Shown one piece after another: positions 16,022 to 21,730 of a stretch of 28,381 nt of DNA (position 1 is its first letter; every line of letters begins with the position of its first letter). The notes beneath the pieces were generated by a model that did no database searches, was not told where the DNA came from, and worked only from the letters and a program-made list of their open reading frames with translations. The stretch lies in the IMG/VR virus record IMGVR_UViG_2534681833_000008; one strand, 5' to 3'. Source of the stretch: a virus. Its lineage: Duplodnaviria > Heunggongvirae > Uroviricota > Caudoviricetes. The translations under genes were made by a program, and so were the position numbers.

Positions 16022-16038
16022 AGACTTATTAGAGCAAT
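16022..16038 (-). promoter_or_regulatory. C1 operator-like site
   Basis: Reverse complement ATTGCTCTAATAAGTCT, 15/17 match to the C1 consensus; at the right-hand boundary of the hsd cassette. Confidence 0.55.
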
Positions 16039-16544
16039 TATTGTTGATGGAGAAGCGCGTTTTCATACTCCCTGACCATTAACGTAAGTACGCCGTGACT
16101 CCTGAAAACACGCGCCACTTCAATCTTATCTTCCAGCGCGAACGCAATTTTACTTAGACCAATTTTCTTCAGGAGATCAATCTTTGCTGGACCGTCATTT
16201 CTGTCATCGGTGGCAGGACGCATAGATAGCAAAGGCTCAGCCCCATTTGTTACGTGCTTACGCAACCAGGCTCGTGTTTTATCCCTGGCTATCTCACAGC
16301 GCCCGGTTACAAACCAGAGGGTGTAAATGCCGGACAACTGGCGCACCATATCAATAACTGGAGTGATGGGAGCATCAGTGTCACAGGCAAGGTTAAACTC
16401 GTTCCAGTGCTCTGTTAATGCACCTTTGCCAGGTGGTGGAAGTAAATGCAGCCTGTCTTCCGTTGCCTCTGATATCGTCCCATCAATATCTACTATGACG
16501 ATGTACGGACGTTCCTGGTGTGCGTGTTTATTGAAAATACTCAA
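16038..16544 (-). CDS. HAD-superfamily phosphatase resembling the polynucleotide 3'-phosphatase domain of T4 Pnkp
   Basis: N-terminal DxDGT motif (VDIDGTI); further resemblance to the T4 Pnkp phosphatase domain (CDTD, VTGR, DDR segments) from memory. TTG start after AGGAGG SD. Confidence 0.65.
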   Translation of the reverse strand: MSIFNKHAHQERPYIVIVDIDGTISEATEDRLHLLPPPGKGALTEHWNEFNLACDTDAPITPVIDMVRQLSGIYTLWFVTGRCEIARDKTRAWLRKHVTNGAEPLLSMRPATDDRNDGPAKIDLLKKIGLSKIAFALEDKIEVARVFRSHGVLTLMVREYENALLHQQ

Positions 16545-16616
16545 ATGCCCTCCTCATTGGACGAAAAAAATGCTGGTGGGAGCACTCCACCAGCATTAAA
16601 AGTGACACTGTAACTA

Positions 16617-17880
16617 TCAGCGAACGTAAATAGTGCCGCCGTTCTCTTTTTCCCATGCATCGCTACGTGCATAGCAAACATCGAGAAGTCTTCTTGCCGC
16701 AGTTTCCTCTAAACCCAATTCGACAACCAACTGCTCATGACGGCGGGTAACCACATCAAACAGGGTATGCAGCCCTTTAGTTGCCAGATCATCAATGAAT
16801 TCCGGTTCGAACGGCAGCTCTGCATCTGCTAACATAACCTCTTGCGCCCACTCAACTCGACGGACCAGTTCCGGGCGGCGGCTTTCCATCTCTTTACAGA
16901 TCAATTCATGGAAGAACTCTACCCAACCTTCCGGCTGGAACTCGCGGAAAATTGCCAACGGCTGGAAGTTTGGCATCAACCATTCGTTGATTCGGATATC
17001 AATGGCATAGCCCATGTCGCAGCAGAACTGATAAGCAAAGTCCAGCTTAGAAACGATATAAGGACGCTCGTTATTGAACTCTTTAGGCGATGAGATCCCA
17101 TAAGCCAGGAGGCGCGGGAAGAAGGAGATTTGCCCTAACGTCGGATGAAGTTTGCTTGCAGGGAAACGGCGCTCAGTAATGCCATACATTTCCTTCTTGA
17201 GCGTCGCAAATTTGGCATTCTCATTAACCAGCGCGGTAACCTCTGCTTTTTTATTAGCAAATGCCACGCGCGCTTCGCTTGCATCTTTAATAGTTTTTTT
17301 GAGCTGTTGGTTAAGGTCGGCGACCTGCTTACGCAGTTCCTGTCGCTCGCTTTTAGCTTTGTTATAGCGTTTCTCAAGGTTAAAAGGATCAAGTTTCATG
17401 ATCTCTTTATATTGAGATTTTAGCGTTGAAATCTGTGAGTTCCGCAGTTCAACCATCGCGGTCATTTCATTGAGTTTTGTTTCCAGCTCAATGCTTATAC
17501 GTTCGGCATTATCAGCACGCTGGTTGGCGTCATGCGTCGCATCGTCGATCGCGTCCTGTTGCTGGCGTTTCAAATGTTCAATTTGCAGCTGAAGCTCTTC
17601 AATTTCTTTACCCTTCAGACCGAGATCCAACTGCATATTTTCAGCTGCATCTACCAGGGAGTTATGGCTATCAGCTTCTGCGTTATAAACATCAATAAGC
17701 TGTGCGTGAAGCATCTCCGCTGACTGAACCGCATTATCAAAAAAAACGTGCTGTGAGGTCATCACAACTAACGCGGCGTTGCGCGGCCCGGATGTTCTGG
17801 ATAATGGCCGGGATACCGGCATTCAGGACATCAGGGATAGATACATTTTCGATTGATTGGTTTTGTGCTGAAGTGCTCAT
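16617..17880 (-). CDS. Coiled-coil protein with C-terminal globular domain, interrupted by a frameshift in an A8 tract
   Basis: ATG at 17880 sits 1 nt after the upstream gene's stop and opens a 47-codon frame that stops right after the homopolymer at 17739-17746. The 401-aa track ORF (16617-17822) continues in the -1 frame and has no SD at its own candidate starts. One fewer A gives a continuous 420-aa protein. Confidence 0.55.
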
Positions 17881-17881
17881 T

Positions 17882-18100
17882 TCAAAGTTCCGTATTAGCT
17901 TGTGCTTCGGTCATTTTTCCTAAGTATGAAGGAGGAAGGACTACGCAATTTGTATCCAGTCCCTCACCTATGGCAGCCTGTAAAATTCTGGCTAAGGTGA
18001 GTCTCTTGTTGCGATACCTGGTGATGACATGCCTGATACCGCCGGTCGGCGTAACAAAGGCGATCAGCCAGTAGTGATATTTCCGTCGGAATGGCCACAT
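17882..18100 (-). CDS. Hypothetical protein, 72 aa
   Basis: ATG at 18100 with AAAGG SD directly downstream of a C1 operator; stop 1 nt before the next gene's ATG. Confidence 0.35.
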   Translation of the reverse strand: MWPFRRKYHYWLIAFVTPTGGIRHVITRYRNKRLTLARILQAAIGEGLDTNCVVLPPSYLGKMTEAQANTEL

Positions 18101-18114
18101 AGTGCACCTTTTTG

Positions 18115-19554: not shown

Positions 19555-20180
19555 CATGTATTCTTCAGCCATTCTTTAAGAGTCATCTGCGGAATACCTC
19601 CCATTTTCCCGCATGAAACAACGTCAATCTGTTCACGCGCAGACTGGAATAACAAAGGCAGGTGACTTAGATTTTTTGGCGTGCCGCCGGAGTGAACGCG
19701 TAGTTCTTGCGTAGCGTCAACGCCCACCAGGGCTACATGTTTGAATCCGATATGGAAAGCCAGGTTCAGAGCACCATATGCACTATTGCCGCTGGCAATT
19801 TCATTCTCATCTTCGCAAAGGCCGAAATGTGCGGACCAGCGCCACGCCCACCACTCGGGAGAATTCGTATTTTTTGGCTCTGTGCCGCGTTCAGCCACAC
19901 GACGGAAGCACAGAATGCCGTCTCTGACTTCACGTTCTTTAACATCGGGTAGTGCCATGCAATAACAAACACCACGGCGACGGCGGCCACGACCAACGCG
20001 CCGCATATTGTCTGGCGATGGATCAAGTGTGAAAAAATAAGAAGCGCGGTTAAGCCAGTCGATAGCCCCATTGACCGCTATAATCGGCACTCCGCGCGGC
20101 GCAACAAAGTTTGCGGCGCTTGGGCCACTGCCGACGATAATAACGCGATCACTGCCTCTAAATTTATTCTTGGGAAACAT
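19554..20180 (-). CDS. Rossmann-fold protein with GSGPS motif, resembling GT42 sialyltransferase-like / DUF115 transferases (paralog B)
   Basis: IIVGSGPS ... IIAVNG ... [25 protein letters not shown] parallels the Cst-II-type pattern (GNGPS ... CN ... G-x-AxxLGYKEIYLSGID) from memory; AGGAG SD upstream. Confidence 0.5.
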
Positions 20181-20740
20181 TGAATTGCACTGCTCCTACT
20201 TGCATTCAAAATATGTAAATCTGCGTGTTTTTTGCGGGTATCCAGGAACTGCTGTTGCCATTTTGAAATAGACACCTGCGTTGGATTCCGTAGGGCTTGA
20301 GGGTGCGCGCCATGCCAATGAAGGCCGTTTTGCAGAGAACAGTCATAGCCGACTAATACCACTACTTCAGCCCCTGATTCAGCAGCCAGACTGATAGCCT
20401 GCGCGCCGCTATTTACCCCTTCCGCCGGTCTACAATATCGCCTGTACTCCAACGAAAATGATTTCGCCGCCGCCAGGTTGGCTGTCACTTTGCGGAACCT
20501 CCCTCCCGGTATGGTGGAACCGTATTGCTTCCACCATGACAAATCACCGGCGTATAAGGCATAAATGTCATCGAACATCAGCCAGGAATTGTTAACCGCA
20601 ATGATTGAACAGCCAGTTTTTTCTATAGCAGCACAGTCCTCACGAGTGAGTGACGGACCGCTACCGACACAAAAAACAGTCCTAGTCGCCCTGGGTGGTA
20701 TGTTCATTCTCAGCTGCAAATTCAGCCTCCAGGCGAGCAT
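20078..20740 (-). CDS. Rossmann-fold protein with GSGPS motif (paralog A of the 19554-20180 gene)
   Basis: FCVGSGPS ... IIAVNN ... VNSGAQAISLAAESGAEVVVLVGYD; clear paralogy with the downstream gene. The 3' end overlaps it by 103 nt; the true start may be the internal ATG (MNIPP) at 20707. Confidence 0.5.
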   Translation of the reverse strand: MLAWRLNLQLRMNIPPRATRTVFCVGSGPSLTREDCAAIEKTGCSIIAVNNSWLMFDDIYALYAGDLSWWKQYGSTIPGGRFRKVTANLAAAKSFSLEYRRYCRPAEGVNSGAQAISLAAESGAEVVVLVGYDCSLQNGLHWHGAHPQALRNPTQVSISKWQQQFLDTRKKHADLHILNASRSSAIQCFPRINLEAVIALLSSAVAQAPQTLLRRAECRL

Positions 20741-20903
20741 TCATTTCAGCGATTACCGGGTCCACTTCAGCATCTGCTTCCTGTTCATTACGCGGCATGA
20801 TCGATGCCAGCGATTCATAATTAACCTTGAATGACACTATTATTCTCCCGATGTTAATGTGCGCTATATCAAAGAGCACATGTGCACTAATTAATTTATT
20901 ATT

Positions 20904-21482
20904 TTAAGCAGCATACAACCACTTGTCGCCGTTCAATACATGCTCAATAGCCTCACCCTTCTTAAGGCTTATGTATTCCAGGATGGCGGTTATCGCTTGT
21001 TCTGCACCATACGCAAGAACGACGTAGTAACCTTCCTCTCTAAGCCTGCGCATCCAGGCGATCTGCTCTTTCGTCGGGGCTTTACCATTTGGTTCTTTAA
21101 GCTCAATTCGCATGCCGTGATAAATACCGCATGCTTTATCGAGACTCATGTCCGGATAACCTTTTTTCTGCCCTTCAGCCTTCATTTTCCCGGCGGTTGC
21201 TTTTGAACGTTTCCCTCCGTTAGGCGTTGCATGCAACAGCTCATAGATGTCAGGGTGCTTGCGTTCGAAGTAATCAAAAATGAAAACCTGCTCGAAGTGC
21301 TCGCAATTTCCGTCGCGCAGGTCAGGGTTCTTTGCCAGTGCTGCAAGTGCCTTCGCATGTGGAGAAACTTCTTTTACCGGCGCAAGCGATAAGAATGGAT
21401 CCTTTTTGGTTTTTGGCCTGGACCGCCCCTTATTTCGACGCTCACTAAAAGCCTGAAACTCTTCCTCAGTAAAGCGCAACAC
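20904..21482 (-). CDS. VRR-NUC domain (PD-(D/E)xK) nuclease-like protein
   Basis: C-terminal segment KKGYPDMSL ... GMRIELKEPNGK ... YYVVLAYGAE fits the VRR-NUC pattern; GTG start 2 nt after the upstream stop. Confidence 0.6.
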   Translation of the reverse strand: MLRFTEEEFQAFSERRNKGRSRPKTKKDPFLSLAPVKEVSPHAKALAALAKNPDLRDGNCEHFEQVFIFDYFERKHPDIYELLHATPNGGKRSKATAGKMKAEGQKKGYPDMSLDKACGIYHGMRIELKEPNGKAPTKEQIAWMRRLREEGYYVVLAYGAEQAITAILEYISLKKGEAIEHVLNGDKWLYAA

Positions 21483-21484
21483 AA

Positions 21485-21730
21485 TCAGTCAAATCCTGCC
21501 GGTCGCATGCCATATTTACGCTGTTTTGCGGCCTGCTCTTCCCTGTGCCATTGCGCACACTCAGCGTCACAATAGATGCCTGATTCAATCGGTTCATTGC
21601 AGTAACGACACTTCCCTGTAAATACCTGACTCACGACCTGTGCCTGCTTTCTGATGTTATCGATGGCCATGTCTTTGAGAGCTTCTAACTGATTCATGCT
21701 CAGCTCTGCATCATCAACACGCTCTGCCAA
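21485..21730 (-). CDS. TraR/DksA-family C4 zinc-finger protein
   Basis: CRYC-x12-CDAEC four-cysteine motif in an 81-aa product; TTG start with GAGGA SD; first gene of the minus-strand operon. Confidence 0.6.
   Translation of the reverse strand: MAERVDDAELSMNQLEALKDMAIDNIRKQAQVVSQVFTGKCRYCNEPIESGIYCDAECAQWHREEQAAKQRKYGMRPAGFD

Follow-up and report, generated by a model that had tools for sequence, protein, structure and literature searches.

The stretch considered here, positions 16038-21730 on the minus strand of a viral DNA of 28,381 nt (IMG/VR record IMGVR_UViG_2534681833_000008; the whole of it is called the window below), belongs to a bacteriophage P1-like plasmid-prophage, in which it makes up the pmgL-to-pap region, a part that has already been annotated. 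It is quite likely that this region is a row of at least three, and probably four, short same-strand units that C1 keeps repressed in the lysogen until induction releases them. The products of these units are best explained as unrelated, mostly dispensable accessory functions. An earlier reading of the letters (the original prediction) had described a single early operon in which a Pnkp-like 3'-phosphatase, a lambda-type protein phosphatase, a VRR-NUC nuclease and a TraR-like factor would act together in nucleic-acid end healing or counter-defence. The four family calls were right, but the other six genes (pmgN, pmgO, pmgP, pmgQ, pmgR and pmgS) had been left out of the description.

The identity of the region was established by comparison with phage records. 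Positions 16000-21900 (5901 nt) gave 19 P1-family matches covering at least 88% of the length at 97.7-98.7% identity, and 18 of the 19 were full-length; the records of P1 among them lie at 98.3-98.7%. The reference P1 genome (AF234172 / NC_005856) is 98.3% identical to this interval at nt 78432-84331, where it annotates ten minus-strand genes: pmgL, pmgM, pmgN, pmgO, pmgP, ppp, pmgQ, pmgR, pmgS and pap. All ten P1 open reading frames (ORFs) were found on the minus strand of the window, where they fill the interval from 16038 to 21730, and their products are 90-100% identical to the P1 proteins. Gene order and strand are those of P1, and the five C1 operators Op82, Op83, Op86a, Op86b and Op88 lie at their annotated positions. 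The window differs from P1 in a +1 frameshift in a T-run of pmgS, in a single base of the late-promoter -10 hexamer, and in carrying a type IC hsdMSR locus after Op88 and a 28-codon ORF where P1 has pmgT-pmgV. Outside this region, too, the window resembles P1, with the c1/pac side, phd-doc and the tail genes 26, 25 and 7. Taken as a whole, it is best matched by phage vB_EcoM-673R5, in which this type I restriction locus is also present. The feature is therefore a known one and needs no new name.

Probable C1-controlled units of the pmgL-pap region

A single polycistronic operon would have tight junctions and neither promoters nor terminators inside it, and this is not the organization that we found. 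Start and stop codons were said to overlap throughout (ATGA/TAATG). When the spacings were computed with P1's annotated start codons, an ATGA overlap (4 nt) was seen at one junction only, that of ppp and pmgQ; no TAATG junction was seen among the inspected junctions, although no systematic search was made. The other overlaps are longer, 59 nt between pmgN and pmgO, 103 nt between pmgO and pmgP and 19 nt between pmgP and ppp, and pmgL is separated from pmgM by 2 nt and pmgR from pmgS by 1 nt. The three real gaps, of 66 nt between pmgM and pmgN, 81 nt between pmgQ and pmgR and 72 nt between pmgS and pap, all hold regulatory sequence.

A scan of the window for C1 operators returned 8 matches with three or fewer mismatches, against 0.13 expected by chance. 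The P1 promoters and operators referred to here were taken from the GenBank record AF234172. Op82 (O26; ATTGCACTAATAATTTT; 21788-21804, plus strand) has 2 mismatches to the consensus and corresponds to protein_bind 78528-78544 of that record. It overlaps the -35 element of the pmgL promoter, which confirms that a C1 operator stands at the promoter placed near 21787. The promoter region of pmgL as a whole spans 21767-21837 on the minus strand according to the P1 annotation and our reading of the sequence. In P1, the promoters P1pmgL and P2pmgL are paired with Op82, and a late promoter, LPpmgL, is annotated upstream of pmgL. By transfer from P1, the sigma-70 promoter P1pmgL would have its -35 element at 21789-21794 and its -10 element, TATCAT preceded by TG, at 21767-21772, and LPpmgL its -22 box at 21829-21837 and its -10 element at 21819-21824, all on the minus strand.

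Further promoters are annotated inside the region. Both the P1 annotation and a promoter scan place PpmgN, a predicted minus-strand promoter of the form GCGACA-17-TAAAAT, at 20901-20929/36, where it overlaps the end of pmgM. It is paired in P1 with Op83 (20881-20897, plus strand; called 'Oppp' in the P1 annotation), which has 4 mismatches in the operator scan. The control region between pmgQ and pmgR (18115-18180) holds an inverted pair of operators identified by both annotation and scan, Op86a at 18164-18180 on the minus strand and Op86b at 18115-18131 on the plus strand, together with the predicted minus-strand promoter PpmgR (-35 at 18174-18179, -10 at 18151-18156). The P1 note on Op86a/PpmgR states that it 'controls expression of pmgR and pmgS'. 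C1 control and expression on derepression, as proposed for the region, thus agree with the P1 annotation.

Hairpins occupy two of the gaps. Between Op86a and Op86b lies an 11-bp hairpin followed by Ts (18128-18155, minus strand), with a folding energy of -26.9 kcal/mol (z = -8.1). All 11 of its pairs are kept in 4 lineages; 4 of the 11 change in a compensatory manner and none is broken. The -10 element of PpmgR (18151-18156) overlaps the left arm of this hairpin (18145-18155). Between pmgS and pap, a terminator scan and folding revealed an intrinsic-terminator-like hairpin of 11 bp (6 G-C) with a U7 tract (16562-16597, minus strand; z = -2.8). It is kept, with 2 compensatory pairs, in the 3 lineages that have the gap, including L084 and JK004, and its T7 run is unchanged across them. 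The diverged relatives used in these comparisons, L083 (a Logan assembly), L084 (an ENA assembly) and L087 (Cronobacter phage JK004, MZ188976), keep the gene order at 50-80% protein identity. Sites resembling the operator recur in them at corresponding positions: upstream of pmgL, at the end of pmgM, as an inverted pair between pmgQ and pmgR, and overlapping the pap stop codon. No RNA family of Rfam matched and a search for tRNA genes found none.

An operator and a terminator near 16022 had been taken to mark the end of a single unit. The operator is real: Op88 (OpmgT; ATTGCTCTAATAAGTCT; 16022-16038, minus strand) has 2 mismatches and overlaps the pap stop codon. As an end mark it fails, for in the P1 annotation it is the operator of the next downstream promoter, PpmgT. 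The supposed terminator is a G+C-rich hairpin at 15967-15989 that has its T-run on the plus strand, as a plus-strand terminator after the convergent hsdR would, and no U-tract follows it on the minus strand, where it lies at the 5' end of the transcript from the Op88 promoter. The idea of one transcription unit is thus contradicted by the annotated internal promoters PpmgN (Op83) and PpmgR (Op86a) and by operators and two hairpins conserved in relatives. The evidence for independent promoters comes from annotation and comparison, not from transcript mapping.

On this basis we infer promoter use, termination and read-through as follows. The first unit would consist of pmgL and pmgM, expressed via Op82 plus the late promoter, the second of pmgN, pmgO, pmgP, ppp and pmgQ via Op83, and the third of pmgR and pmgS via Op86a/b. 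Both conserved hairpins would halt transcripts coming from upstream. Transcription from PpmgR is predicted to start in the hairpin loop; transcripts from upstream would meet the full hairpin and then the Us, whereas those started at PpmgR would lack the left arm, could not form the hairpin because initiation falls in its loop, and would escape termination. The pap gene stands behind the hairpin and U7 terminator and is probably expressed at a low level by read-through, as judged from its TTG start, its strong GAGGAGGG ribosome-binding site and its location behind the terminator. The next downstream unit would begin at Op88. P1 has been described as organized into 45 transcriptional units.

Several points weigh against this view of the region as separate units with dispensable products. 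The promoters and terminators between pmgL and pap are predictions, and the samples behind the hairpin covariation are small (3-4 lineages). In L083 the hairpin between pmgQ and pmgR is without a U-tract, and this hairpin may be a repressor-looping or RNA-stability element rather than a terminator. In a preprint on RNA sequencing of an hfq mutant, pmgS and pap behave alike and pmgQ and pmgR differently; this grouping, which separates pmgR from pmgS, fits no simple operon model. Since the gene order persists in P1-like elements of only about 50% identity, a degree of functional linkage is conceivable, but vertical inheritance accounts for the order equally well. Finally, CRISPR interference (CRISPRi) on pmgN lowers plating about 70-fold, while an in-frame deletion of the gene is viable; CRISPRi on the genes either side of it has no effect, and simple polarity does not explain the result.

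Other attempts to resolve the transcripts gave little. Published RNA sequencing of P1vir does not provide the boundaries of transcripts. A promoter scan found no pap-specific promoter at 16545-16700. A box resembling the late-promoter -22 element before pap (TAGTTACAG) matched the three annotated P1 boxes (AAGTTACTT, TAGTCATTT and AAATGACTA) too weakly, and a conserved AGTTACAGTGTCAC motif, considered as a pap promoter element, had 4 matches in the window against 1.66 expected, which is not above chance. CRISPRi roadblocks in pmgL, pmgM, pmgO, pmgP, ppp and pmgQ cause no defect. The polarity of CRISPRi onto the essential gene pmgR was uninformative as a test of co-transcription, since targeting pmgR itself causes no defect.

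The IMG/VR P1-like contigs L020, L043, L051 and L060 carry insertions of about 1.5-5 kb between pmgM and pmgN, inside pmgP, between ppp and pmgQ, and between pmgS and pap. This suggests that the unit boundaries are tolerated sites for the insertion of cargo or insertion sequences.

Pap and the ends of nucleic acids

The pap gene (16038-16544, minus strand; TTG start after GAGGAGGG) encodes a predicted stand-alone phosphatase of the HAD type, 168 aa in length, and of the Pnkp 3'-phosphatase kind. Pap matches the Pfam family HAD_PNKP (PF25109) with 44.1 bits (E 3e-11; curated cut-off 27.6). A profile of the Pap family matched Pnkp1 (9.7e-39), T4 Pnkp (3.1e-35) and the isolated T4 phosphatase domain (1.4e-27) in the PDB. 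The AlphaFold (AF2) model of Pap (mean predicted local distance difference test score, pLDDT, 93.6) had 5uj0 (TMt 0.76), 4xru/4xrp and 1ltq as its top Foldseek matches. Residues D19, D21, R31, D57, K121 and D139 are invariant in 102 aligned homologues, and the wider set D19-I-D21-G-T23, R31, D57, R82, K121 and D139 is invariant or nearly so; the catalytic positions align with DVDGT, R, K and DD of T4 Pnkp. Pap thus has in common with the C-terminal 3'-phosphatase domain of T4 Pnkp (1ltq, 5uj0) its HAD fold and the catalytic positions DxDxT, Arg, Lys and Asp. The call of a Pnkp-like 3'-phosphatase, a phrase that is already a protein name in public records, was well founded, and the protein is named acid phosphatase in the P1 annotation. 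Pap differs from the T4 Pnkp-Rnl1 tRNA repair system in having no kinase domain, and its sequence identity to T4 Pnkp is about 20%.

Most homologues are likewise phosphatases on their own. An exhaustive search returned 2961 cluster representatives, most of them stand-alone proteins of 145-160 aa; a few are fusions of about 300 aa with an N-terminal P-loop kinase. With tblastn against annotated phages, homologues were found in 1164 of 50,697 phage records, again mostly stand-alone. In Drulisvirus SU552A, a stand-alone homologue directly follows endonuclease VII and a 5'-3' exonuclease. In L083 (Logan assembly SRR27421428), the gene of a DEDD 3'-5' exonuclease (Pfam Rv2179c-like, 3e-50) and a 101-aa ORF are inserted between pmgS and pap (7135-8001 of that assembly). 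The exonuclease gene stands second upstream of pap, the 101-aa ORF that separates the two shares 1 nt with the start of pap, and the gap with the terminator is absent. These contexts suggest DNA/RNA end processing, in replication, recombination or salvage, rather than a repair pathway.

Pap itself probably acts on nucleic-acid 3' ends. We infer the substrate here, as for every enzyme discussed in this text. Most likely it would remove 3'-phosphates from DNA/RNA ends or from 3'-nucleotides, in the service of phage DNA replication, recombination or the salvage of nucleotides. Host 3'-phosphatase activities would make it redundant, which would explain why its deletion has no phenotype. It is also conceivable, though unlikely, that Pap acts on small molecules, either as a 3'-nucleotidase for salvage or by destroying a 3'-phosphorylated signalling nucleotide of host defence. 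The phosphatase domain of T4 Pnkp also hydrolyses deoxynucleoside 3'-monophosphates, the fold matches that follow the Pnkp entries are AphA and e(P4), class B/C acid phosphatases with nucleotide substrates, and the acid phosphatase of the P1 annotation points the same way. However, the closest relatives of Pap by both sequence and fold are polynucleotide-end phosphatases, its neighbours in other phages are polymer enzymes (the junction endonuclease and exonucleases), and no signalling-related partner gene is present.

A larger role for Pap was part of the original prediction, that of one early operon for end healing or counter-defence. Spelled out for all ten genes, such a model would have Pap and Ppp remove 3'-phosphates and 2',3'-cyclic phosphates from ends, with PmgM as the enzyme that processes DNA, for example where host defence nucleases have cut tRNA or DNA. 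Pap does belong to the Pnkp phosphatase family, and it is T4 Pnkp that heals tRNA after cleavage by PrrC. Lambda-type phosphatases have a relative in the phosphatase domain of bacterial Pnkp, and Ppp has a weak partial match to the NCBIfam family bacter_Pnkp (2e-10). In addition, the gene order is conserved in diverged P1-like elements, and all of the units are under C1 control, hence co-induced. We nevertheless consider an integrated end-healing system very unlikely, because there is no kinase nearby and no ligase match, ppp is separable and the deletions are silent.

The enzymes that such a system would need were not found. With a 3'-phosphatase as the only enzyme, the 5'-OH persists and prevents ligation, so that no ligatable break is restored; the enzyme also removes the 3'-phosphate used by the host ligase RtcB. 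When the kinase domains of five fused homologues were used as tblastn queries, nothing below E 0.36 was found in the window and nothing at 1e-3 for a Pnkp-type kinase in about 80 P1-like loci. Among the ten proteins, to which the ligase search in this element was confined, no ligase family matched in Pfam, PHROGs or NCBIfam. The sole ligase-named match, PHROG 8238 on Ppp, covers the phosphoesterase part. The published table of all P1 genes names no ligase or kinase as a gene function. With PADLOC, the sole match to a defence family was that of PmgS to LmuB, which was marginal and low-scoring (E 9.4e-4).

The genes also do not behave as a set. The internal operators, promoters and conserved hairpins split the region, and for six of the ten genes there is no connection with nucleic-acid ends. 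JK004, a cultured P1-like phage in which all genes of the region are annotated 'hypothetical protein', keeps the other nine genes and has no ppp, pmgP being directly followed by pmgQ (9085-10465); in phage D6, ppp occurs alone, among nin/ea-type genes. Essentiality was taken from the literature. In-frame deletions of pmgL, pmgM, pmgN, pmgP, pmgQ, pmgS, ppp and pap are listed in the supplementary strain table of PMC9024508, and pmgO is scored non-essential in a table of PMC10695390 that cites that study. The deletions of these nine genes, all but pmgR, changed neither plaque formation nor anti-restriction (PMC9024508, PMC10695390), and CRISPRi knock-downs agree, pmgN excepted. A coordinated module for end healing or counter-defence is therefore improbable, to judge from the missing kinase and ligase matches, the six unrelated genes, the separable ppp and the silent deletions.

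There is a slim chance that Pap by itself is a counter-defence enzyme with a conditional phenotype that clears tRNA, mRNA or phage DNA of the 3'-phosphates produced when host defence nucleases or toxins act on them. After their removal, host enzymes could finish the repair or clear the blocked ends, and in some relatives Pap would work with the nearby DEDD 3'-5' exonuclease. If true, this would account for the presence of a kinase-less Pnkp phosphatase in about 1 in 40 phage records, and also for the lack of an effect of the P1 deletion on laboratory K-12. We know of no link between Pap and an anticodon nuclease, and a literature search returned nothing on a role of Pap or NinI in counter-defence.

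The other gene products

The product of ppp (18880-19572, minus strand) is a lambda-type Mn-dependent protein phosphatase, an orthologue of NinI. It matches the lambda phosphatase structure 1g5b at 1.5e-94 over 219 residues and Pfam Metallophos at 9e-16, and the motifs GDLHG, GDLIDRG and GNHE are present; the P1 annotation gives 64% identity to the lambda enzyme. Ppp is thus similar to NinI over its full length, which bears out the call of a lambda-type enzyme, and is non-essential like the lambda nin genes. Its setting is different, since P1 ppp lies between glycosyltransferase-like genes under a C1 operator and not in a nin region; the D6 orthologue does lie among nin/ea-type genes.

The pmgM gene (20904-21482, minus strand) encodes a putative nuclease of the VRR-NUC (PD-(D/E)xK) class. 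It matches the VRR-NUC structure 4qbl at 3.5e-17 with the catalytic motif kept (GYPDMSLD...IELK aligned to GYPDLIID...IEIK), in agreement with the earlier call, and scores 21.2 bits against Pfam VRR_NUC (PF08774), below the cut-off of 23.8. PmgM shares the PD-(D/E)xK core, GYPD...ExK, with psNUC (4qbl) and differs from it by an N-terminal extension of about 75 residues. It would be a nuclease for branched DNA, and in the literature PmgM names a VRR-NUC subfamily.

PmgL, an 81-aa protein (21485-21730, minus strand), is probably a diverged TraR/DksA-like zinc-finger protein by sequence and is expected to bind the secondary channel of RNA polymerase. It matches PHROG 54 'DksA-like zinc-finger protein' over its whole length (1.7e-13), which agrees with a TraR-like assignment for a diverged relative, and aligns end to end with F-plasmid TraR at 26% identity (the TraR query was 98.6% identical to annotated traR genes). 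No match to Pfam zf-dskA_traR was obtained, even at E 10. PmgL resembles TraR/DksA in its similar size, its acidic N-terminal helix (DDAE, aligned with DEAD of TraR), an I..IR motif, CxxC...P and a C-terminal QRK[YH]. It differs in the zinc finger, CxxC-x9-CxxxC against CxxC-x17-CxxC in the family: the second cysteine pair is CxxxC instead of CxxC, and the loop that holds the zinc is shorter by 7 residues.

On either side of ppp lie the three glycosyltransferase-like genes (18182-20740, minus strand); pmgO and pmgP are Maf/sialyltransferase-like and pmgQ is GT-A-like. PmgO (20078-20740, minus strand; PHROG 4603) is a putative glycosyltransferase of the Maf/GT42-like (MptE-like) kind, and its true start is possibly the ATG at 20707. 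Its AF2 model (pLDDT 94.1) best matched the Maf flagellin glycosyltransferase 5mu5 (E 8.7e-5, TMq 0.61), and its score against Pfam MptE-like was below threshold. A GSGPS motif is present, which we take to be of the kind found in sialyltransferase-like enzymes. The pmgP gene (19554-20180, minus strand) encodes a paralogue of PmgO with 26% identity. PmgQ (18182-18883, minus strand) is a candidate glycosyltransferase of the GT-A-like type with a DxD motif (YLDLD); it matches PHROG 1962 'glycosyltransferase' at 4.9e-128 and, weakly, the GT8 enzyme 6mw5 around the DxD (E 0.08), and no Pfam family. P1 adsorbs to the lipopolysaccharide core, so PmgO, PmgP and PmgQ might modify the receptor or virion proteins.

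The smaller pmgN (20682-20837, minus strand) is annotated in P1 as encoding a 51-aa protein of PHROG 2350 (function unknown), and its GTG start is preceded by GGGAGA. PmgS (16617-17880, minus strand) is a coiled-coil protein of PHROG 1660, 420 aa long in P1. The gene has 1264 nt here, not a multiple of 3, and a +1 frameshift (17737-17880) splits the 420-aa reading frame into ORFs of 47 and 401 aa. The shift lies in a run of T8 near 17740-17747, against T7 in P1 and in the locus L003; in L084 the T-run is interrupted and one base shorter. The T8 run may be a homopolymer sequencing error or the mark of a real pseudogene.

PmgR (gene at 17882-18100, minus strand), 100% identical to the P1 protein, is a head-completion protein and the product of the only essential gene among the ten. 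Deletion of pmgR gives unjoined heads and tails, and complementation was done (PMC9024508). The prefix pmg stands for putative morphogenetic function, and the region might be read as an operon whose products build or decorate the virion, the glycosyltransferase-like proteins modifying virion proteins and PmgR and PmgS serving head completion. Besides the pmgR phenotype, the late promoter before pmgL, the resemblance of PmgO to Maf protein glycosyltransferases and the head-to-head arrangement of the cluster with tail genes 26, 25 and 7 speak for such a function. We find it most improbable for the region as a whole. No second essential gene accompanies pmgR, and PmgR was not detected in the P1 virion proteome (PMC9024508). 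The main text of the same paper does not mention PmgS, PmgQ, PmgM or Ppp, hence discusses none of them as virion-associated. Four of the products, namely the nuclease, both phosphatases and the TraR-like factor, are not structural proteins, and C1 operators mark early, not late, expression.

Flanking sequence and significance

Just downstream of Op88 and its promoter, a 28-codon ORF (15853-15939, minus strand) with a good ribosome-binding site encodes the hydrophobic peptide MNTAFKIIMAAIYFWLFSIIFGGIVAHG. P1 has this ORF too, without an annotation, between pap and pmgT, and the peptide is conserved in L084 and JK004 (MQVLIKLAVTAFFVWLF... and MHLIFKLAITAFYAWML...). It is probably the gene of a small membrane protein that was missed in the annotation of P1.

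Near 15850, right after this ORF, P1-like sequence joins the hsd locus. A complete type IC restriction-modification locus, hsdM, hsdS and hsdR (EcoR124_C domain), occupies 9726-15773 on the plus strand at the place of pmgT-pmgV of P1, which according to its annotators retains about 220 nt that are 96-98% identical to the EcoDXXI and R124 hsd flank. A prrC gene was looked for beside the hsd genes. The hsdR frame opens at 12597 (GTG), 61 nt downstream of hsdS, and its true start may be later (the frame was compared with Pfam from 12657 onward). No ORF of at least 100 aa lies between the end of hsdS at 12535 and this frame, and there is thus no room for prrC.

For practical purposes the outcome is negative in that the idea of an end-healing operon should not be carried forward as a discovery. 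The two hairpins between units suggest how P1 stops neighbouring same-strand units from reading into each other. Kinase-less phosphatases of the Pnkp type are very common in phages, as the 1164 records above illustrate, and a literature search found no role assigned to them. P1, for which a pap deletion is ready-made, is a convenient system for finding the circumstances in which these enzymes matter.

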